64,000 nucleotides of DNA from Dictyostelium discoideum (GCA_000004695.1 CM000155.2:2464001-2528000); one strand, 5' to 3'; shown: positions 15,749 to 42,713, counted from the first letter of the stretch. Program-made: numbers and translations. The notes: generated by a model not told the origin, from the letters alone.

Positions 15749-15864
15749 TTTGATGGAAAGTATTTTTTATTAGAAATACTCGTACGTTATTATCTGAGAT
15801 CGAAAAAAACAAACAACAACAACAATCTCTTTTTTTGATTATTTCATTTTTCATATAAAAAAGA

Positions 15865-15909
<45 letters not shown>

Positions 15910-15984
15910 GGAACCAAGTTAATTAGAAAATTTCCAGATTTTTAACTTTTTAAAGAAAAATAAAAAAGATAGAAAGAAAATAAA

Positions 15985-17319
15985 ATGAAAATCACAAACA
16001 ACACCACAAATATTAAGCAACACAAATGCCTACAAAAAATAAGCGAAATTGTGGATAAAACTCAATTAAAAAAAAAACAATTCAAATACGTCATAAACAT
16101 CAATCACGAACCAGACGATAAAATAAAAAAAGATTTAGAAAAAAGTTTGGACAAAAAAGATGTTTTAATCAAAAGTAATAATACATTCAAAATTCTCACA
16201 GACAGTATTAGTACAGTAATCTATTTTGTAAATATGTTTGATGCAGAATTAAAAGGACAATTTATAACCACTATAAGACCAAAAAATATGTATACAGATT
16301 TTGATTGGTATAAATCACTCACAGAAATAGAATGGGTAATAGAAAATGAAGGATGTAAACTAATTAAATCAGAAATTAAAGGCGAAACTCTAATTATCAA
16401 AACAGTGAAAAGAGTCGTAGAAGAATTTGACACTATCATTGAACTAGACAATCTAACATTAATTGGACACTCCAACAAAGGATGGAGAGATCAAACCTCA
16501 TTACCAGAAAATCAAGAAGAAAACAAAAATAAAAAACAATCAGATGAACAACAACCACAATCTACATCAGAACAAATACCAAAACAAGGAAAAAGAACAA
16601 TCATTATCCCACCAATCACATCCTCATCTAATGATAAAACATTTATGGCCCTAGATGATACAGCTCAAAAGGTAATAGATGCATCACTAGAAAACGTAGA
16701 TGAACTAACAAGAATAGAGAATGAGATCAATACACAATCGATAAACAATCAAGAAATTAAAACAAAATCAGAAAAACCTATCGAACCACCATCTCCATAC
16801 AATACACCAATAAAACAACACGGCGAAACAAAGAGACTAACAACGGAAGAAAAACTTAGAGAGGTAAATGATATCTTCGACTTCACCAGCCCAAACACTG
16901 ATGCAATAAGAAAAATAGAATTCCCACTTTCAATCCCTTCAAATCAATGGTTCTTCTCCTCTCCAATAAAACATATCATGAGTTTCAGCCCAACCTATGG
17001 TACACCATCGAAAATTATCGATTCACCAAGTAAATTGTTAAACACACCAAAAAACAAACAACAAGACAAAACAAACAGGACCAACAAAACACCAGTCAAA
17101 CCAAAATTGGGTGAATATGGACAAAAAAGCATAAAAACAAAAATGGATGAAGATATAGACAACTTCAACAAGGAAATTCTAAAACAAATCAGTAAATCAA
17201 AAAACCCCACAAACACACAAGACCAACAACACAATGAACAAAGTAAAGATCAGTTAGAAGACAAAATAAACCAGAAACTTCAAAAGGTAGATAAAAATCT
17301 ACCCCAAATAAAACTATAA
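15985..17319 (+). CDS. TRE5-A-like retrotransposon ORF1 protein (444 aa), intact.
   Basis: ATG immediately after the B-module. It is 99% identical (4 aa differences) to the copy at 18983..20317. Truncated 66-89-codon versions occur at 15244, 17699 and 20725. I recognise no conserved domain, as expected for ORF1 of this family. Confidence 0.7.
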   Translation: MKITNNTTNIKQHKCLQKISEIVDKTQLKKKQFKYVININHEPDDKIKKDLEKSLDKKDVLIKSNNTFKILTDSISTVIYFVNMFDAELKGQFITTIRPKNMYTDFDWYKSLTEIEWVIENEGCKLIKSEIKGETLIIKTVKRVVEEFDTIIELDNLTLIGHSNKGWRDQTSLPENQEENKNKKQSDEQQPQSTSEQIPKQGKRTIIIPPITSSSNDKTFMALDDTAQKVIDASLENVDELTRIENEINTQSINNQEIKTKSEKPIEPPSPYNTPIKQHGETKRLTTEEKLREVNDIFDFTSPNTDAIRKIEFPLSIPSNQWFFSSPIKHIMSFSPTYGTPSKIIDSPSKLLNTPKNKQQDKTNRTNKTPVKPKLGEYGQKSIKTKMDEDIDNFNKEILKQISKSKNPTNTQDQQHNEQSKDQLEDKINQKLQKVDKNLPQIKL

Positions 17320-17572
17320 AGAAAAACACAATAAGAATAGGTGTTTGGAACGTCCAAGGATCCAATACCATCCAATCTGCCAGCATAATAAACACCGTTT
17401 TAGACAACAACAAGCTGGACGCAGCACTTCTAACTGAAACAAATATAAAAACAAATAAAATTTACTCAATAAATCAACAATATAAAAACAAAATAACACA
17501 CCACGCACCAATTGATAAAACAGGACAAGGGGTGTCACAAATCATCATCAACACCCGCAATAGAACTTCCTA
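17300..17572 (+). pseudogene. 5'-terminal fragment of TRE5 ORF2 (APE-like endonuclease N-terminus), overlapping the ORF1 stop in the +1 frame and truncated after about 85 codons.
   Basis: ...KNTIRIGVWNVQGSNTIQSASIINTVLDNNKLDAALLTETNIKTNKIYSINQQYKNKITHHAPIDKTGQGVSQIIINTRNRTS*. The WNxxG...LxxETxI motif is characteristic of the L1/APE endonuclease domain. The RT domain is absent, as in the short TRE5-A.2-class copies. Confidence 0.55.
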
Positions 17573-17615
17573 AACATCTCAAAAAATACAATAATTCACT
17601 CAGTACTTTCTATAA

Positions 17616-17657
<42 letters not shown>

Positions 17658-17999
17658 CAAGTTAATCAGAAAAATAAAAAAGATAGAAAGAAAATAAAAT
17701 GAAAATCACAAACAACACCACAAATATTAAGCAACACAAATGCCTACAAAAAATAAGCGAAATTGTGGATAAAACTCAATTAAAAAAAAAACAATTCAAA
17801 TACGTCATAAACATCAATCACGAACCAGACGATAAAATAAAAAAAGATTTAGAAAAAAGTTTGGACAAAAAAGATGTTTTAATCAAAAAGACCCTGTAAA
17901 AAAAAAAAAAAAATAAAATGAGATCTAGCATCTCAAGGAGAAGCAAATAATAATTGCGTTATCCAATTCAAAAAAAAAAAAAGTACGTTATTATCTAGA

Positions 18000-18862
18000 G
18001 ATCGAAAAAAACAAACAACAACAACAATCTCTTTTTTTGATTATTTCATTTTTCATATAAAAAAGACTTAAAAAACAAATAAATAAATAAATAAACTATT
18101 TTAAAAAGCCATCTTTTTACTTTATTGTAATTTATTATTTGTTTCGTTTTGAGAATTTTGCGTAGCAAAATTTTCAAAAAAAAAGCAAAAAATAATCAGA
18201 TCGAAAAAAACAAACAACAACAACAATCTCTTTTTTTGATTATTTCATTTTTCATATAAAAAAGACTTAAAAAACAAATAAATAAATAAATAAACTATTT
18301 TAAAAAGCCATCTTTTTACTTTATTGTAATTTATTATTTGTTTCGTTTTGAGAATTTTGCGTAGCAAAATTTTCAAAAAAAAAGCAAAAAATAATCAGAT
18401 CGAAAAAAACAAACAACAACAACAATCTCTTTTTTTGATTATTTCATTTTTCATATAAAAAAGACTTAAAAAACAAATAAATAAATAAATAAACTATTTT
18501 AAAAAGCCATCTTTTTACTTTATTGTAATTTATTATTTGTTTCGTTTTGAGAATTTTGCGTAGCAAAATTTTCAAAAAAAAAGCAAAAAATAATCAGATC
18601 GAAAAAAACAAACAACAACAACAATCTCTTTTTTTGATTATTTCATTTTTCATATAAAAAAGACTTAAAAAACAAATAAATAAATAAATAAACTATTTTA
18701 AAAAGCCATCTTTTTACTTTATTGTAATTTATTATTTGTTTCGTTTTGAGAATTTTGCGTAGCAAAATTTTCAAAAAAAAAGCAAAAAATAATCAGATCG
18801 AAAAAAACAAACAACAACAACAATCTCTTTTTTTGATTATTTCATTTTTCATATAAAAAAGA

Positions 18863-18890
<28 letters not shown>
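18000..18890 (+). repeat. Tandem array of TRE5-A A-modules: four complete units of 199-200 bp (starts at 18000, 18198, 18398 and 18597) plus a partial fifth (18796-about 18868) ending in an A-run.
   Basis: Near-identical units gatcgaaaaaaacaaacaacaacaacaatctctttttttgattatttcatttttcatataaaaaagacttaaaaaacaaataaataaataaataaactattttaaaaagccatctttttactttattgtaatttattatttgtttcgttttgagaattttgcgtagcaaaattttcaaaaaaaaagcaaaaaataatca. The copy at 15797 has a single truncated unit. Confidence 0.85.
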
Positions 18891-18907
<17 letters not shown>

Positions 18908-18982
18908 GGAACCAAGTTAATTAGAAAATTTCCAGATTTTTAACTTTTTAAAGAAAAATAAAAAAGATAGAAAGAAAATAAA

Positions 18983-20317
18983 ATGAAAATCACAAACAAC
19001 ACCACAAATATTAAGCAACACAAATGCCTACAAAAAATAAGCGAAATTGTGGATAAAACTCAATTAAAAAAAAAACAATTCAAATACGTCATAAACATCA
19101 ATCACGAACCAGACGATAAAATAAAAAAAGATTTAGAAAAAAGTTTGGACAAAAAAGATGTTTTAATCAAAAGTAATAATACATTCAAAATTCTCACAGA
19201 CAGTATTAGTACAGTAATCTATTTTGTAAATATGTTTGATGCAGAATTAAAAGGACAATTTATAACCACTATAAGACCAAAAAATATGTATACAGATTTT
19301 GATTGGTATAAATCACTCACAGAAATAGAATGGGTAATAGAAAATGAAGGATGTAAACTAATTAAATCAGAAATTAAAGGCGAAACTCTAATTATCAAAA
19401 CAGTGAAAAGAGTCGTAGAAGAATTTGACACTATCATTGAACTAGACAATCTAACATTAATTGGACACTCCAACAAAGGATGGAGAGATCAAACCTCATT
19501 ACCAGAAAATCAAGAAGAAAACAAAAATAAAAAACAATCAGATGAACAACAACCACAATCTACATCAGAACAAATACCAAAACAAGGAAAAAGAACAATC
19601 ATTATCCCACCAATCACCTCCTCATCTAATGATAAAACATTTATGGCCCTAGATGATACAGCTCAAAAGGTAATAGAAGCATCACTAGAAAACGTAGATG
19701 AACTAACAAGAATAGAGAATGAGATCAATACACAATCGATAAACAATCAAGAAATTAAAACAAAATCAGAAAAACCTATCGAACCACCATCTCCATACAA
19801 TACACCAATAAAACAACACGGCGAAACAAAGGGACTAACAACGGAAGAAAAACTTAGAGAGGCAAATGATATCTTCGACTTCACCAGCCCAAACACTGAT
19901 GCAATAAGAAAAATAGAATTCCCACTTTCAATCCCTTCAAATCAATGGTTCTTCTCCTCTCCAATAAAACATATCATGAGTTTCAGCCCAACCTATGGTA
20001 CACCATCGAAAATTATCGATTCACCAAGTAAATTGTTAAACACACCAAAAAAGAAACAACAAGACAAAACAAACAAGACCAACAAAACACCAGTCAAACC
20101 AAAATTGGGTGAATATGGACAAAAAAGCATAAAAACAAAAATGGATGAAGATATAGACAACTTCAACAAGGAAATTCTAAAACAAATCAATAAATCAAAA
20201 AACCCCACAAACACACAAGACCAACAACACAATGAACAAAGTAAAGATCAGTTAGAAGACAAAATAAACCAGAAACTTCAAAAGGTAGATAAAAATCTAC
20301 CCCAAATAAAACTATAA
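18983..20317 (+). CDS. TRE5-A-like ORF1 protein (444 aa), second intact copy.
   Basis: It differs from 15985..17319 by four substitutions (D/E, R/G with V/A, NK/KK with R/K, S/N). It is followed by the same ORF2 5' fragment (20298-20570). Confidence 0.7.
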   Translation: MKITNNTTNIKQHKCLQKISEIVDKTQLKKKQFKYVININHEPDDKIKKDLEKSLDKKDVLIKSNNTFKILTDSISTVIYFVNMFDAELKGQFITTIRPKNMYTDFDWYKSLTEIEWVIENEGCKLIKSEIKGETLIIKTVKRVVEEFDTIIELDNLTLIGHSNKGWRDQTSLPENQEENKNKKQSDEQQPQSTSEQIPKQGKRTIIIPPITSSSNDKTFMALDDTAQKVIEASLENVDELTRIENEINTQSINNQEIKTKSEKPIEPPSPYNTPIKQHGETKGLTTEEKLREANDIFDFTSPNTDAIRKIEFPLSIPSNQWFFSSPIKHIMSFSPTYGTPSKIIDSPSKLLNTPKKKQQDKTNKTNKTPVKPKLGEYGQKSIKTKMDEDIDNFNKEILKQINKSKNPTNTQDQQHNEQSKDQLEDKINQKLQKVDKNLPQIKL

Positions 20318-20613
20318 AGAAAAACACAATAAGAATAGGTGTTTGGAACGTCCAAGGATCCAACACCATCCAATCTGCCAGCATAATAAACACCGTTTTA
20401 GACAACAACAAGCTGGACGCAGCACTTCTAACTGAAACAAATATAAAAACAAATAAAATTTACTCAATAAATCAACAATATAAAAACAAAATAACACACC
20501 ACGCACCAATTGATAAAACAGGACAAGGGGTGTCACAAATCATCATCAACACCCGCAATAGAACTTCCTAAACATCTCAAAAAATACAATAATTCACTCA
20601 GTACTTTCTATAA

Positions 20614-20683
<70 letters not shown>

Positions 20684-21000
20684 CAAGTTAATCAGAAAAA
20701 TAAAAAAGATAGAAAGAAAATAAAATGAAAATCACAAACAACACCACAAATATTAAGCAACACAAATGCCTACAAAAAATAAGCGAAATTGTGGATAAAA
20801 CTCAATTAAAAAAAAAACAATTCAAATACGTCATAAACATCAATCACGAACCAGACGATAAAATAAAAAAAGATTTAGAAAAAAGTTTGGACAAAAAAGA
20901 TGTTTTAATCAAAAAGACCCTGTAAAAAAAAAAAAAAAATAAAATGAGATCTAGCATCTCAAGGAGAAGCAAATAATAATTGCGTTATCCAATTCAAAAA

Positions 21001-21037
21001 AAAAAGTACGTTATTATCTACAATTCAAAATTCGAAA

Positions 21038-21657: not shown

Positions 21658-21739
21658 ATACTAATAAAATTAAATTTTAATAATTAAAATTTTAAAACTT
21701 ATATTTAATTAAATTTTATTTTAAATTCGTATTCTAATT

Positions 21740-21821
21740 GTCGTAACAAATATAAAATTATAGAATAGAATGACTTAAATGAATTATACGTATTCTATAA
21801 TTTTATATTTGTAACGACAAA
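21740..21821. repeat. Perfect 30-bp inverted repeat (ttgtcgtaacaaatataaaattatagaata / tattctataattttatatttgtaacgacaa) with a 22-nt loop.
   Basis: Arms are 21740-21769 and 21792-21821. The loop reads gaatgacttaaatgaattatacg. It sits about 150 bp upstream of the ATG of the 7TM receptor gene. Confidence 0.85.
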
Positions 21822-21970
21822 TTTTTAAAAAAAATATCAAATTATCGATAAGTTTTTTTTTTTTTTTTTTGATTGTGAAACTTATCTAAAAGTCTGATTG
21901 TTTTTTTTTAAAAAAAAATCAATTTTTTTTTTTTTTTTTCATTTTAATATTTATATCCCAATTAAAAACA

Positions 21971-24900
21971 ATGAATAAAAATTTTCAACTAATTTTATTT
22001 ATCATTTTGATTAACTTAAAGTTTTTCATTGGTAATGTTAATTTTTTAAAAAATTGATTAAAAAAATTGAAAATATATTAATTTAAATTATTATTTTTAG
22101 ATGGATTAAAGGTTTTAAATTCAACATTAACATTAAAAGATGGGACAAATGTTTTCGGGGCTGTATTATATTTTGCAGTTATAGAGTTGGAACTTGATTC
22201 TTATATTTATAAATATGATGCATTGGCATGCCCAAATTATCAATGTTCAACAGTTAATACAACCAAAGATTGTTCATGTGATTATACAAATTTTAGTGAT
22301 TGCCCAAAGACAGCGAATCGAGATCCAAGCTGTTCAACATGCCCAATTCCAACCGTTGAGTATTGTCCATCAATTAATAATTGGGTTACAGTTGAAAAAG
22401 ATATCGATTACATCTTTGAAACCAATCAAACAATGTACCTACGTTACAAAGGAAATTCATCAATATGTGAAGGTATAATGGCAAGATCATATCCAATTAA
22501 AGGTTTTCATAATTTAAAAGGTGGATCATCACCATTAGAATATTTACAAAGAAGTCTATCCAATTATAGACCACAAATCTATGGTGTAATGAATTTATGC
22601 CCAAGTGATATTGATAGTTCAGGTATGAAATCATGGACCCAAGATACATTTTTTTTTACAATTAAACCATTTGGAAATACTGATGGAAGAAATGTAAGCC
22701 TTTCTTTTAGAATAACTTCAAAAGAGGTTTCAAGTGAACCAATTATTACCGATTCATGTACTTCTCCATTTCCAGCAACTCACAGATGTATTTATGATGG
22801 CGAATTTATAAATGAAAAAAGTGAAGCAAGTAGTTATCACTTTTTTGTTTTCAATGCAACAAAATCTGCAATCTATACTATAAGAGCACCACAATTTGAA
22901 CAACCTGTTAGAATTTATGCAAGTATTAATACTCAATACCCAAAGTTAAATGGTTATGGTAATGAAAGGGCAGAATATTCATCAATTGACGAATTTGAAA
23001 ATTCAATTACTATCTATTTAAACAAATCAACTATTTTATATATTTCAATTGAAATTACATATAAAACAAACTATAGTTTAAGTATTACATCTCAAGGATA
23101 TTACTTACCTGTTAATGTATCATCATTACCTCCCAAAGCTGGTGCATATGCTTTGGTAAAATCTTCACAAATAGATTTTGGAAAAGGAGTTACTTATGAT
23201 TGTGATTCTTGGGATACTTGTCAAAGGTTCTCAGTTAATTATCCATTCACTGATAGTAATCCATTGAATCCAATACCATCAGGACTCTATTCAATTCCAA
23301 ACTTTTATTTACCACCCTATCCATTGTTAGACTATGATGAAGAATTATTTTTAGCAAATCCTGTAAAACCAAAATCATTTACAATGTCAGTCCTAGTTGC
23401 CTATAAGTTAGGCAGCAATGCAGTTACAAATTTGGATTATTTAAGTGAAATATCTGCATCACTTGTTAGATTTAAATCAAATATCTTTGATCAAGATGGA
23501 AATGCAATAAATAATGTGGCATCTTTAACTCATTATGATTTACCATGCGATTATGAAGAGTTTTCAATAATTAATAATGCAATTTTAAAAGGAGATAAAC
23601 TATTATACGATGTCACCGATATTAATACTATCAATAGATATAGCTATATGTTAGACTCTTTAACAATTCGTAATAGTTGGATTGGATGTAATGCAAAAGC
23701 AAATTCATTATTTGAACTTAATTTTAAAATAACAAATTACACTATGATTATATGTGACAAAAATGCTTCAACACCAGAGTTTAATGAAGATCCTTGTTGT
23801 AATCCAAATCAAAAATACTTTCAATGTTGTAACCCAAAACCAAAAGAAGTAAATACTGTGGAATTAAGTGGTCTATCATATGAAACAATACAAAGTAAAT
23901 GTTCTTTTCCATCATGTACTGAATCAGTTTTATCACAATTTAATTCAACCTATGTAACTTTAGATTTTTGTGCACTTGATAATGGTATTTATGATCAACT
24001 AAGAACTAATTTAATACAAGTAGTAAGATCATGTAAAGAAAATTCTAGTCCAATTTGTATAAAAGATAGTGATTGTATTGACTACGCTGGTCCTGATGCA
24101 GTTTGTGATTTAATGGGTCATACTTGTATACCAAATTATAAATTTACAGATTATAAATATTTGAAATGTGTATTTAGTCAATTGGATCAAGTTACCACCT
24201 ACAATCTATTACACAAACCATTTTCATTTAATAGTAAAATCATTGATGAAATTTATGAAAAATATCAAAAACAAGATTGTATTACAGAGGGTACATTTTT
24301 ATCACAAAGACTACAATATCGTTGGGATTCAATTGATGCAAGACTTCAAGATCCAAATAAGTTTTATCCATCAAGTTATGGTTTAGATGATAGTCATCCA
24401 ATAATTCATGATACAATGTATGATAAATTATTTGATAATTTCAAAAGAACCTATTCTTGGTCCTATTTTGATTATTGCACAAATTTTTCAATTTGTCCAT
24501 GGGTATACCAAAATGATTATTACTATGGTTTTTCAAATGATCCAAACTCAAAACCAATAATGGATTATTGTAATCAAATTAGTGGTTTTTGTGGTGATTG
24601 TGCAAATGGTTTAAAAAGTTTTTGTAATACTTTTGGCTATAGTGATCAAAATATTTGTGAACAAACAGATTATTGTGTATTAGGTGGAAATTATTTAATG
24701 TCCCAATTGAATATGACACAACAACAATGTGAATCATATGGTATGTGTTCAGTTAATTGTGGTTATCAATGTTCATTTTCAAATCCAACAACCTATCAAT
24801 CAAATTGTTTTGTTTTAAATGTAAATCAAACTCAATGTACCTCAATGACATATACTTGGGATTCCAATTTATCCGCATGTATTGATACAATGGCAACTTC

Positions 24901-27208
24901 AAAATCTCAATGTACAAATCATCATTGGTTAAATTGTACAGAAAAACCAATCGATGAATGTACTGGACCATTTGGAACATTATTTAATTATTGTTCATTA
25001 CAACCAATTGTTTGTTCAACTAAAGAAGAATGTGAAAATGCAGGAGTTTGTTCAGATTCTTATTTCTTTAATCCAACCAATACTCAAGCCTATCCATTTA
25101 ATTTAGGAAAATGTGTACATGGCCATGAAACCTATAGACAATATCCTTCATGTGAATATAATATTGACGGATATATTGAAAATGATAGTCCAATGGGTTG
25201 TTTCTCTTATACTCCTCAAGTATTAACAAAATCAGATTGTGAATCATTGGGTTCAAATTATACATGGTGGCCACCTGCAACAAATAAAAAAGATTGTTTA
25301 AAGAATATGGGATGTAAAGTTTATGCAACAACTACTAAAACTGATATGTTACCATACAATATCATTTTTAATCAAATGAATCAAGATGAATGTTTAGGTT
25401 GTTATGGTTCTCAAAATGAATATACAAATAAATTTGAATGGACACCAGCAACTTGGTTACCAGCTGCATTAGTTAAAGGAAAATGGTATACACCAGATCC
25501 AATCACCAATCAATTTTGGACACCAATTAATAATTTAACAACAACACTTGATTATGGAAAACTTTATGATGATTTAGTTTTGGCAGTAGATTCTCATATG
25601 ACAGATCAAATTCGTTCATCATACTTTTGTAGAACTCAACGTTTTAGAGATAATTTAGATTCAATTGCATGTAGTTGTGCTGATACTGGTGGTTATCGTA
25701 ATTCAACATGTTTCAAGGATTCAGCATTGCTATTTGGTCAAGTGAAACCATGTTCATCAAAGTCTGAAACATTTAATTTCCCAAATGGTTATATTGAGAT
25801 TTCAAATTCATCAGTAGAGGTTGGTTGTGGTGATATGTTGATCTTTCAACTATCTAGAGAAATTTTCATTTCAACAGAAGGTCAATCATTCCCATCCAAT
25901 TTTGTATCATATCCAAAACCTGATAATTTTGGTTTATTTAATAATAATAGTGCAATTGTTGGTACAATCATTGGTGATGGGTTAACAATTGAATCGAAAT
26001 CAATCAATCGGATTTTATTATGTTTCCTTTATTCAGGTAATCCAGATGAAAAGAAATATCCAATTTTAGATTTTGGATGTCAAGATCAAGATACAGGTAT
26101 ACTTCATCCAATGGGATTAAATGTATTTATAGAAACTCAACAAAACCTTGATTTCCTTTGCTCAAATATAACTCATTTAGATTCAAAACAAAATTATTTC
26201 CCAATTAATCGTATTGGTAATGAAGATTGGAGAAATGTTGAAAAGAAATATTTTGATCAAAAAACACTTGGACTACTTTATACATTGGCAGCAATTTATT
26301 TGGTGGTTTTAGTATATGGATTCTATCAATTGATAATAGTTGCAATTATTAGATTTAAAAAAATAATTCATAGATTTGAATTGGTTCATTTGTTATTGTT
26401 TATGATTTTTGTATTCCTTTTGGTTAGAACCATTTATTTCTTTTTATTACCAAGTGGAAAACTTTCAAATAGTGCAGTTGCAGATTATATTTTAGTGGTT
26501 TTACCAACATTCTTTTATTTCAGTTGTTTCACAATCATTATTGTTCTTTGGTATGTTATTGTAGTATTGGTATTAAAGAATAATTCAGCATCAAATTTTT
26601 CCAATAGATTATTCTCAATGGTTGGTTTGGTTAATTTTATAATCTATTTATTATTGGTTGCCATTGTTTTAGTATTCCAATATACCAAAGATTCACCACA
26701 TGAATTTTGTGGTTCCAGAATTATTTTCCATGTATCTACAAATAAAAGTCAAAAAACAGTCTCCATACTTTATGCGGTTATTCAAGCTGTAATTTCTTTA
26801 GTGCTCGGTGTTGCATTCATTTATTTAGGCGGTAGTCTTTATAGAGCAATGAGAGCCGCAAGTCAAGGTGCTAAAAAAGGAGGTTTAGATATAAAGAAAG
26901 CTCACTCTAGAGAATTAAAAATATTTTTATTAACTACAATTTGTAGTACTGGTTTCTTACTTCATTGTTTATTCATTATCATTTTAGTTGCATTAAATGA
27001 ACCTTCAATAGTTTTCAGTTTTATTGGTTTAATAATTACTGAAATAATACCTTCAATAACAATTCTATATTGTTATGATCAAAGAACTAGTTTATCATTA
27101 GATATCACTTTATCTTCAAAATCTTCAAAATCTTTTTCATCAACTGATACAAAATTACAAACTGTTTCTGAAACAATTACTTTTAGTCAAAATTTATCTT
27201 CAGAATAG
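21971..27208 (+). CDS. Seven-transmembrane receptor-like protein with an extracellular region of about 1360 aa that is rich in Cys and N-glycosylation sites. Proposed model is join(21971..22031, 22101..27208).
   Basis: Exon 1 encodes the signal peptide MNKNFQLILFIILINLKFFI and ends in a phase-1 donor G|GTAATG. The acceptor is TTTTTAG|AT at 22100/22101. The main ORF is open from 22082, and the track start at 22187 is a TTG. The C-terminal 400 aa contain seven hydrophobic helices (LLYTLAAIYLVVLVYGFYQLIIVAII ... IVFSFIGLIITEIIPSITILYCY) followed by a Ser-rich tail. The ectodomain carries many CxxC and CxC clusters and NxS/T sites. I see no GPS, PBP or Frizzled-CRD motif, so the family is unassigned. 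Confidence 0.6.
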
Positions 27209-29283: not shown

Positions 29284-31171
29284 TTATAATTTAACAATTG
29301 GACTTAAACTATTTGAACTATTACTATTATTGTTACTACTTGAACCAGTAATATTATTTGAATCTCTATTTGAATTATTTAATTCTCTGGCACTACCTAA
29401 ATTGATTGAACTTGAAGAACCAGTAGTACCAATTAAACTTGGTTGATAAACACCAGCCAAAGGACTATTGACTTGAGATTGTAAAGATTCGGACAATAGA
29501 TTCAAATCGTATTCAGAGTATTTTGGTAATTTGTTTACAAAGGTAGCAACTTGATGAACGATTTGAAGATTGTAAGGGAATTGATAATGACCAATCTTTG
29601 AGAGGATTTCATAGAGATTTTGTCTCTTTGTGAAATTGATTAAATTGTTCATATTTGAAGGTTGATCTCTTTCGATTTGAGCAAAGTCCTCACGAATAAT
29701 ATCGATCCAAGGAACGCAAGCTGGTTGAGATCTAGCCAAAGCTTCACGATACAATTTGTAATTATCAATTTTTGAGAATAACATCTCATGATCGGCAATG
29801 ATTTCACGATGACGTGGTGTGAATAAATCTGGACGCGATAAAAGTAATGGATGTTGAAGACCTTGAAGTACTGAATGTAAAGTTTGGAAATTATTCAATT
29901 GTCTAAGACATTCGGTTGTCTTTATGAATTTATCCAACATTTTCATTTTGTTCTTTTTATCACGACTTTCATTTAGTACGGTATGGACGATCCAACGTGA
30001 AACATCGGTGGCACGATTAACAAATGTCATAAGATTTGGAGAGGTGGCCATATTATATTGAAACTCACCATAGCCAATTACACGTACCATAAACTCTGGT
30101 GGTGGAATGGCACCAAACAATTTCGATTCTACAAGTGTCATTTGTCTTGCAATTTCCAACTCATCGATATGAGCCAAAGTAAGTTGAGGTGAGAAAATAT
30201 TCTTTGGTACTTTTGGTTCGGGTGGTGGTTCACTGTAGGGTCTAACATCCTCATGTTGAAGTTTCTTTTTAAGTTCTCTCAATTTCTTAATGTTTGAATT
30301 ACCATCACGAGTCAATGAACCATCGATGAAATTATTGAGTGTGGCAACCAAAACCGAAGAGGTCGGACCTGCATTGAAATCCCATGGACATTTATCTACC
30401 CAATATTTCAATACATCAACAACACGTTGACGAACTGGTTCAACCACTTCACTCTTATATTTTGGTTCGTTTGCATTTGAATTTGGTACTTGATAACGTT
30501 GAATCAATTTCTTTAACAATTTCTCAGATGTTGTGAATGATGAATGAGTGTAGAGGAAAACCTTGAGGAAATTTGGATCGAATGCTTTCTCCTTTGGTGC
30601 GAGATAATGAATCAATTTATTGAATGTTGCCGCTTTGATTTGAACTTTATTATTATCGGTTTCAACTTTTCTAATATTTCTATTGTTATCTTCACCCTCC
30701 TCCCAAACGTTGATATCCTCTTCCTCGTCGAAATGACGATAGTCGTGATAGAGATGATCTACCACTGCCACCTCTGGATCATTACCTTCCTCTTTGGAGA
30801 ATAGTGATAAATCTGTATCGAAAACATTCTTATTTCTTAAACGTGGTTTAACTAAACGTAACAATGAAACCAAACGACTCTCTCCAGATTCAGTTGGTTG
30901 ATGTAATACACCAGACTCTTTTTGAATGGCTGCAATCACTTTATGATATGTATTTCTCTCCAAATATTCCATAATTAATTGAAGTACAAATTGATGTGAC
31001 AATGCTAATCTATTCTCTGAAAATGATGGTGTTGCCAAAGTTTTTGCAAATGATTTACTACCTGTAAATGCTAATGTCTTTTCTCTTAATTCTAAAATTT
31101 CTGGATGTTTTTTCATTAATGATGCTTCCCATAATTCTTTTGGTATATTTTGAACTCTATTTGATTCATAA

Positions 31172-37319: not shown

Positions 37320-42713
<5,394 letters not shown>

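Follow-up and report, generated by a model that had tools for sequence, protein, structure and literature searches.

A giant Cys-rich Dictyostelium discoideum protein with a THH1/TOM1/TOM3-type seven-helix bundle belongs to an undescribed family across Amoebozoa

A 64,000-nucleotide stretch of the Dictyostelium discoideum genome (GCA_000004695.1 CM000155.2:2464001-2528000), herein called the window, was analyzed, with positions counted from its first letter. Positions 21971-27208 on the plus strand hold a two-exon gene for a protein of 1,722 amino acids (aa). The protein is built of a signal peptide, a Cys-rich ectodomain of 1,385 aa, seven transmembrane (TM) helices with a helix 8, and a Ser/Thr-rich tail. 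It belongs to an undescribed Amoebozoa-wide family of ~1,700-aa proteins. Most likely, and with moderate confidence, it is a non-cleaved sensor resembling the adhesion G-protein-coupled receptors (GPCRs), that is, a membrane receptor with its N-terminus outside and its C-terminus inside the cell. The initial annotation of the window had described a giant receptor-like protein with seven TM helices (7TM) and an unclassified ectodomain, possibly a lineage-specific adhesion or sensing receptor. Adhesion or sensing is a reasonable putative role. The lineage-specific part did not hold, since a multigene family was found across Dictyostelia and other Amoebozoa, with parts of the ectodomain also present in an ancyromonad.

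The seven-helix region with helix 8 (aa 1407-1692, 26258..27115) has a predicted GPCR fold and carries the THH1/TOM1/TOM3 domain PF06454. The match scored 35.6 bits against a gathering cut-off of 25 (E 8.6e-9, aa 1396-1679), and the alignment covers positions 5-257 of the profile (253 of 273). No other 7TM family matched the protein in the Pfam scan at E<=10; Dicty_CAR, 7tm_1, 7tm_2, 7tm_3, Frizzled, GpcrRhopsn4, Lung_7-TM_R, GAIN and GPS gave no Pfam match. PF06454 was the only Pfam family found for the C-terminal region, and no transporter family was matched. The initial annotation reported no assignable motif; this is correct for the ectodomain at E<=10 and not for the 7TM part. By hydropathy, an N-terminal hydrophobic segment (aa 4-20) is followed by seven segments within aa 1407-1680. 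The same number was obtained from an AlphaFold2 model of aa 1131-1722 (model A), which was built on a 56-sequence alignment and reached a mean predicted local distance difference test (pLDDT) of 82.6 and a predicted TM-score (pTM) of 0.75. Model A has seven long TM helices and a short helix 8 in a canonical 7TM bundle topology, with a disordered tail, in agreement with the seven C-terminal helices first noted.

Basic residues cluster in the predicted cytoplasmic loops, with RFKKIIHR in intracellular loop 1 and eight Lys/Arg in intracellular loop 3. The cysteines and the NxS/T sequons lie on the opposite side from these loops, which supports the N-out, C-in topology predicted from the sequence. 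Conservation is highest in the TM region, with a mean identity of 47% across the family and 96% among orthologues, compared with 24-35% mean identity to family members for the ectodomain modules. Apart from cysteines, the only residues invariant in the 56-sequence alignment are R1463 (TM2), P1489 (TM3), Y1578 (TM5) and E1668 (TM7), which suggests a conserved buried polar network within the bundle. The tail (aa 1693-1722 with the stop codon, 27116..27208) appears to be cytoplasmic and Ser/Thr-rich, as judged by its composition and its low pLDDT (<50 in model A); Ser and Thr make up 47% of the 38 residues beyond the TM profile. In nearly all family members the tails are rich in Ser/Thr (mostly 0.20-0.60) without being conserved in sequence.

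Plant THH1/TOM1/TOM3 proteins, such as the tobamovirus multiplication factor TOM1 of Arabidopsis, share the seven-helix hidden Markov model (HMM) above the curated threshold. A tonoplast or endomembrane site and binding to the tobamovirus replicase, TOM2A and ARL8 are traits of the plant proteins. With ~290 aa, the plant members consist essentially of the 7TM domain and have no ectodomain; the Dictyostelium protein differs from them by its signal peptide and 1,385 extracellular residues. It is a TOM1 member at the domain level with a novel architecture, because these extra residues are placed on a PF06454 bundle. The literature found on PF06454/DUF1084 concerns plants exclusively.

The region directly before TM1 consists of modules P1 and P2. 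Module P1 (aa 1131-1240, 25430..25759), defined by model A and conservation, contains a Trp-rich segment, in which W1134, W1139 and W1149 are near-invariant, and a 42-residue helix (aa 1172-1213) bearing invariant Cys. Module P2 (aa 1241-1400, 25760..26239) is a predicted beta-sandwich of 13 strands, GAIN-B-like or GOLD-like according to model A and Foldseek. In model A, the sandwich extends over aa 1230-1391 with a pLDDT of ~90, and its last strand, KQNYFPINR (aa 1383-1391), ends ~15 residues before TM1. C1328 and C1374 are invariant in the 56 sequences. When the sandwich was included, the best Foldseek match was the inactive CD97 GAIN+7TM structure (E 6e-7, 515 columns, TM-score 0.30). Wntless (WLS), also a sandwich on a 7TM bundle, occupied ranks 2-4 at about 5e-4, and the isolated CD97 GAIN domain matched at E 6e-3 over 174 columns. 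Plain GPCRs (E ~3e-3) were no longer the best matches.

GAIN subdomain B is defined by a twisted 13-strand sandwich and subdomain A by six helices (PMC3321182). In layout and strand count the modelled likeness to GAIN is real. It is incomplete, because one 42-residue helix rather than six precedes the sandwich, the TM-scores are ~0.3, and the GPS motif is absent. A GPS lookalike, 'THLD' (aa 1378-1381, 26171..26182), lies between the last two strands, and the family comparison shows that it is not a GPS. The residue after HL is Asp in D. discoideum and Ala or Gly in D. citrinum and D. dimigraforme, so that no cleavage nucleophile is available. HL itself is missing in every family member outside the D. 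discoideum-group orthologues. A single Cys near 'THLD', six residues before the Leu, is invariant; the CxC pair and the two Trp of a GPS are absent, and no Pfam GPS or GAIN match was obtained.

The remaining ectodomain was modelled as aa 22-1130 on a 54-sequence alignment (model B; mean pLDDT 85.4, pTM 0.74). It begins with a three-stranded beta unit followed by a small Cys knot of eight nearly invariant Cys (aa 22-112, 22103..22375), predicted from model B and Cys conservation; pLDDT is mostly ~76-95 there and 66 in the final ten-residue block. Two jelly-roll beta-sandwiches (aa 113-232 and 250-362, within aa 113-362, 22376..23125) follow according to Foldseek and hhalign. The top Foldseek match to model B in the PDB is the ColG collagen-binding tandem s3a-s3b (E 2.5e-7). 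The SID-1/SIDT1/SIDT2 ectodomain matches at about 1e-6, and botulinum HA70 domain 3, PCPE-1 CUB1-CUB2 and neuropilin a1a2 are also matched. All PDB fold matches of model B are tandem jelly-roll sandwich pairs (E 2.5e-7 to 1e-4). Judging from the strand map, these matches of ~250-300 aligned columns probably belong to aa 113-362. Homology between the two jelly rolls is weak (hhalign 54%, E 1e-4), and one family member has a weak Pfam PPC match. The tandem jelly rolls at the distal end are shared with ColG, SID-1, HA70 and the CUB pairs at the fold level, with 7-12% identity, so ligand specificity is not transferable. A Magnetococcales protein (P0158) was rejected as a homologue; it is a PPC-repeat protein with a pairwise BLAST E of 0.76, and would be at most an echo of the jelly-roll fold.

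Module M1 (aa 363-565, 23126..23734) is a third beta-rich domain in model B with three helices behind it, and is kept as a unit in distant relatives. The Cys-rich core (aa 566-1130, 23735..25429; modules C1-C3), delimited by Cys counts, invariant Cys and model B, contains 45 Cys. It is modelled as a disulphide-stapled, largely helical region followed by small helix-hairpin Cys modules, in which the motif TxxxCExxGxC recurs. Its pLDDT is mostly 80-95, and none of the top 50 PDB fold matches covers it. No credible Pfam match at E<=10 was found for the ectodomain as a whole, in nine pieces, or in 28 relatives; the best scores of the pieces, Alpha-amylase_C (E 0.08) and GUB_WAK_bind (E 0.5), are not credible. 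Searches of PDB sequences with the protein and with the family profile returned noise only (E>0.7). The description of the ectodomain as unclassified therefore stands for the Cys-rich core, while structure prediction places the tandem jelly rolls and the helix with its 13-strand sandwich.

Homologues were collected by an exhaustive HMMER search with aa 197-1396, which returned 163 proteins at E<=1e-3 and 35 at E<=1e-30. Word-indexed searches gave 3, 1 and 4 matches only, swamped by low-complexity candidates. HMMs of nine consecutive segments were then mapped onto all HMMER matches. About 30 proteins of 1,600-1,870 aa share the fixed order N1-N2-M1-C1-C2-C3-P1-P2-TM at 25-45% identity. PF06454 is matched by 24 of the 28 full-length members, with a best E of 6.4e-14, and no other Pfam family is matched. 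The 28-sequence family alignment contains ~50 invariant cysteines. D. purpureum has at least seven paralogues. Other dictyostelid members are found in D. firmibasis, Polysphondylium violaceum, Heterostelium album, Cavenderia fasciculata and Synstelium polycarpum, and more distant members in Protostelium nocturnum and Stygamoeba regulata. A protein of the ancyromonad Fabomonas tropica has two ectodomain modules in common with the family. In a D. firmibasis protein of 3,464 aa (P0009, KAK5582521.1), the full nine-module architecture appears twice in tandem; almost certainly, two tandem paralogues were merged by gene prediction, which indicates tandem arrays of the family in group-4 dictyostelids.

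A second group of ~20 relatives, mostly of 1,100-1,460 aa and a few of 2,000-2,560 aa, has the order M1-C1-(C3)-P1-P2 and no TM profile. Examples from Logan and JGI assemblies are P0053, P0072, P0074, P0077, P0083, P0087, P0104 and P0112. These are complete proteins with a signal peptide, and no Pfam domain was found among those tested. They end either in one TM segment with a short basic tail (type-I) or in a terminal hydrophobic stretch resembling a glycosylphosphatidylinositol (GPI) signal. The Cys-rich cassette is thus carried on different anchors, which indicates that it is an autonomous extracellular unit.

The gene model is supported at the nucleotide level. Exon 1 (21971..22031) contains the start codon and the signal peptide (aa 1-20, MNKNFQLILFIILINLKFFI), as seen from the sequence, the hydropathy and the match to KAM9944427.1. 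An AT-rich GT..AG intron of 69 nt (22032..22100) separates it from exon 2 (22101..27208), which includes the stop codon at 27206-27208. Splicing of the intron restores the frame, and the 5,169-nt coding sequence reproduces the deposited D. discoideum protein KAM9944427.1 exactly. The boundaries proposed in the initial annotation coincide with the start and stop codons. Its length of ~1,690 aa agrees with the AX4 record DDB_G0293176 / XP_629322.1 (annotated as "hypothetical") and is below the full 1,722 aa, because this record, labeled 'partial', matches the protein at all of its 1,692 aa and stops 30 aa short of the end. The 30 residues (aa 1693-1722, 27116-27205) are present in the window and in newer D. 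discoideum assemblies. The AX4 reference gene model is truncated at its 3' end.

The open frame of 1,673 codons lies in DNA of ~28% GC, with 27-31% within the gene versus ~14% in the flanks. Orthologues are 82-96% identical (D. citrinum 86%, D. dimigraforme 82%). The long open frame, the conserved orthologues and the invariant family cysteines show that this is not a chance open reading frame (ORF). The gene is real and under constraint. The whole protein contains 75 Cys and 30 NxS/T sequons, of which 70 and ~25, respectively, are in the 1,385-aa ectodomain, as expected from the Cys-rich, sequon-rich N-terminal region first described. No internal repeats and no paralogue in the window were detected by BLAST.

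The placement outside the described Dictyostelium GPCR families was upheld. The protein shares seven helices, the N-out orientation and, with some of them, a large ectodomain with the cAR/Crl, Grl, Fsl/Fsc, LrlA and GPR107/ITR-like proteins of Dictyostelium, but none of their HMMs matches it. Neither Dicty_CAR, 7tm_3 with ANF/PBP, Frizzled with the Fz Cys-rich domain (CRD), nor 7tm_2 was found at E<=10 in the protein or in 28 relatives. The stated lack of PBP, Frizzled CRD and GPS was likewise confirmed by the Pfam scan and by the missing GPS motif.

How the protein would work as a non-cleaved, adhesion-GPCR-like sensor can be outlined from the predicted layout. The ligand of the distal jelly rolls would be a macromolecule, for example a glycan, matrix, a bacterial-surface component or a secreted protein. 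Its binding, or a pull on the ectodomain, would be relayed by the rigid, disulphide-stapled stalk to the juxtamembrane sandwich, seated on the extracellular face of the helix bundle. The bundle, whose outer half holds the invariant, buried pair of Arg (TM2) and Glu (TM7) along with further conserved polar residues, would then rearrange. A cytoplasmic partner, a heterotrimeric G protein or another transducer, would read the change at the basic intracellular loops, and the Ser/Thr-rich tail may serve phosphorylation-dependent desensitisation or trafficking. The N-terminal fold matches are all ligand-binding tandem sandwiches, a point that would favor a receptor-like layout.

The only paper found to mention DDB_G0293176 reports a restriction enzyme-mediated integration (REMI) screen (PMC9073555). 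Seventeen sequenced mutants formed aprA-like colonies and moved without directional bias in a gradient of AprA, and one of them had its insertion in this gene. The sole experimental lead, as yet unvalidated, is a role in AprA chemorepulsion and in dispersal at the colony edge. The present analysis shows the gene, its family, modules, folds and conservation; surface location, ligand binding, coupling and a link to chemorepulsion are inferred. The similarity to NompC quoted from I-TASSER in the same paper is unsupported by the present results.

Several points weigh against the sensor reading. The REMI authors considered that second-site mutations were possibly behind the phenotype (PMC9073555). 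Whether the TOM1 family counts as GPCRs is disputed; in a 2026 preprint (10.64898/2026.03.02.708220), TOM proteins fall outside the GPCR clade. For plant TOM1, a role as endomembrane host factor is reported (PMC3234234). By direct reading of the sequence, the class A microswitches DRY, CWxP and NPxxY are absent; unlike the class A lipid and prostanoid GPCRs DP1, GPR6, GPR3, CB2 and TXA2R, to which its identity is 8-14%, the protein has none of these motifs and no 7tm_1 match. The sandwich may be less GAIN-like than its layout suggests, given the low TM-scores and the additional WLS matches. The structures are predictions, and the surface, ligand and G-protein steps are likewise only predicted.

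The most likely of the other explanations, which is possible though clearly behind the sensor reading, is a non-signalling endomembrane protein of the Golgi, endolysosomal system or contractile vacuole, with the giant domain in the lumen and a function as cargo escort or scaffold. Its models would be plant TOM1 (tonoplast/endomembrane, with ARL8 as partner) or the GOLD-7TM proteins Wntless, TMEM87 and GPR180. TOM1 is the sole sequence family of the protein, and its characterised members are reported to be endomembrane host factors. WLS is among the top four fold matches, and a sandwich right before TM1 is also the layout of the GOST proteins (PMC9711517, PMC11605061). However, no GOST family or GOLD domain was matched in Pfam at E<=10. 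The 1,385-aa ectodomain with jelly rolls of ligand-binding type and the Ser/Thr-rich tail are more like a surface receptor, and the cassette is also carried by type-I proteins that have one TM segment and a short basic tail, a format typical of surface receptors.

Less likely, and regarded as doubtful, is a mainly adhesive or structural surface glycoprotein acting on substrate, other cells or prey, in which the seven helices would chiefly be an anchor, as proposed for other multi-pass Dictyostelium adhesion proteins. The large, rigid, disulphide-rich and glycosylatable ectodomain would suit this function, its fold relatives bind collagen, carbohydrate or RNA polymers, and the same ectodomain on a single TM segment or a GPI-like end can work without 7TM. 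A mere anchor would not be expected to be better conserved than any other part or to keep buried polar residues invariant, as the TM bundle does.

It is clearly unlikely that the protein is a true homologue of the adhesion GPCRs, with a GAIN domain that cleaves itself and activation by a tethered agonist (Stachel). This reading draws on CD97 GAIN+7TM as best PDB match (E 6e-7), the match of the CD97 GAIN domain alone, the 13 strands shared with GAIN subdomain B (PMC3321182), and the 'THLD' turn between the last two strands with the invariant Cys six residues before its Leu. Against it stand the lack of any Pfam GPS, GAIN or 7tm_2 match, the restriction of HL to the D. discoideum-group orthologues, the missing nucleophile, CxC pair and two GPS Trp, the one long helix in place of six, and a 7TM bundle from a different sequence family. 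The remaining readings, as a transporter or channel or as two genes fused by artefact, are very unlikely; one insignificant ABC-permease sequence match (E 1.2) and the proposal that some 7TM relatives such as TMEM87A are channels can be cited in their favor.

Among known systems, the adhesion GPCRs CD97/ADGRE5 and latrophilin resemble the modelled layout in their multi-module ectodomain, the helix or helices and the 13-strand sandwich before TM1, and the GPCR-fold bundle. They differ in belonging to another 7TM sequence family; the Dictyostelium protein has no 7tm_2, no GPS or nucleophile, one helix, and TM-scores of ~0.3 to them. GOST proteins (Wntless, TMEM87A, GPR180, Hi-GOLD) resemble the modelled layout in a beta-sandwich directly on a GPCR-like bundle, but no GOST family matches in sequence, and the sandwich here has 13 strands and is preceded by >1,200 residues. 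The RSF ('Remi-sans-famille') GPCRs were considered and rejected as relatives: they are without an ectodomain and have an extra TM6-TM7 helix with NxLQxxMNxL, whereas this loop is the four residues NEPS here.

Work on chemotaxis and GPCR signalling outside animals takes Dictyostelium as its reference organism. A 2023 census of dictyostelid GPCRs, with selection by six InterPro class signatures, does not mention TOM1, THH1, PF06454 or this gene, and reports that family 2 receptors of Amoebozoa showed neither GAIN nor additional N-terminal domains. A 2025 survey of GPCRs in animal relatives cites TOM1 only as a weak structural neighbour of RSF. Databases already auto-label relatives as 'THH1/TOM1/TOM3 domain-containing', so that the assignment of the 7TM part is not new. 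No paper was found on any of three other points, namely a large family of amoebozoan members with a conserved 1,400-aa ectodomain, the adhesion-GPCR-like layout, and the single-pass relatives. A giant GPCR-fold family is absent from the published GPCR inventories, and the receptor repertoire is therefore incomplete.

Tentatively, the helix and 13-strand sandwich may be an ancient, non-cleaving relative of GAIN or an independent invention, coupled to a TOM1-type bundle. If true, the design of adhesion receptors would not be a holozoan speciality, and a second, unrelated 7TM family with this design would exist in Amoebozoa. The Cys-rich cassette of ~1,000 residues (M1-C1...P1-P2) would be a new pan-protist extracellular module mounted on 7TM or single-pass anchors, and plant TOM1 proteins may descend from genuine surface receptors. 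TOM1 is a plant virus host factor family of unknown native function, and the context seen here points to a receptor-like use of its bundle. A second, independent adhesion-GPCR body plan would help to ask whether cleavage, the tethered agonist and force sensing are essential. Components of the AprA pathway beyond GrlH are being sought, and this gene was a hit in an AprA chemorepulsion screen (PMC9073555).

Other features were noted around the gene. A tandem duplication of ~2.2 kb lies just upstream (15797-17997 and 18795-21020, 98.2% DNA identity); each copy holds a 444-aa K/Q/N-rich ORF (15985..17319 and 18983..20317), 98.6% identical, and no Pfam domain was found in the one copy scanned (18983..20317). 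Closer to the gene, an inverted repeat at ~21730-21820 ('gtattctaattgtcgtaacaaatataaaatt...aattttatatttgtaacgacaaat') and long poly-T/poly-A runs at 21840-21940 occupy the upstream intergenic DNA. The next downstream gene (29284-31116, minus strand) encodes a RasGEF with RasGEF_N and RasGEF domains (E 1e-35). Ras signalling is part of the AprA pathway (PMC9073555), and such adjacency has little meaning in a eukaryote. Further downstream, two adjacent ORFs at 37320-42713 on the plus strand are probably one gene split by an intron. The first (37320..41216) encodes a subtilase domain with an ABC transmembrane region, the second (41394..42713) an ABC ATPase. Together they have the unusual protease-ABC-transporter architecture of the Dictyostelium Tag proteins.

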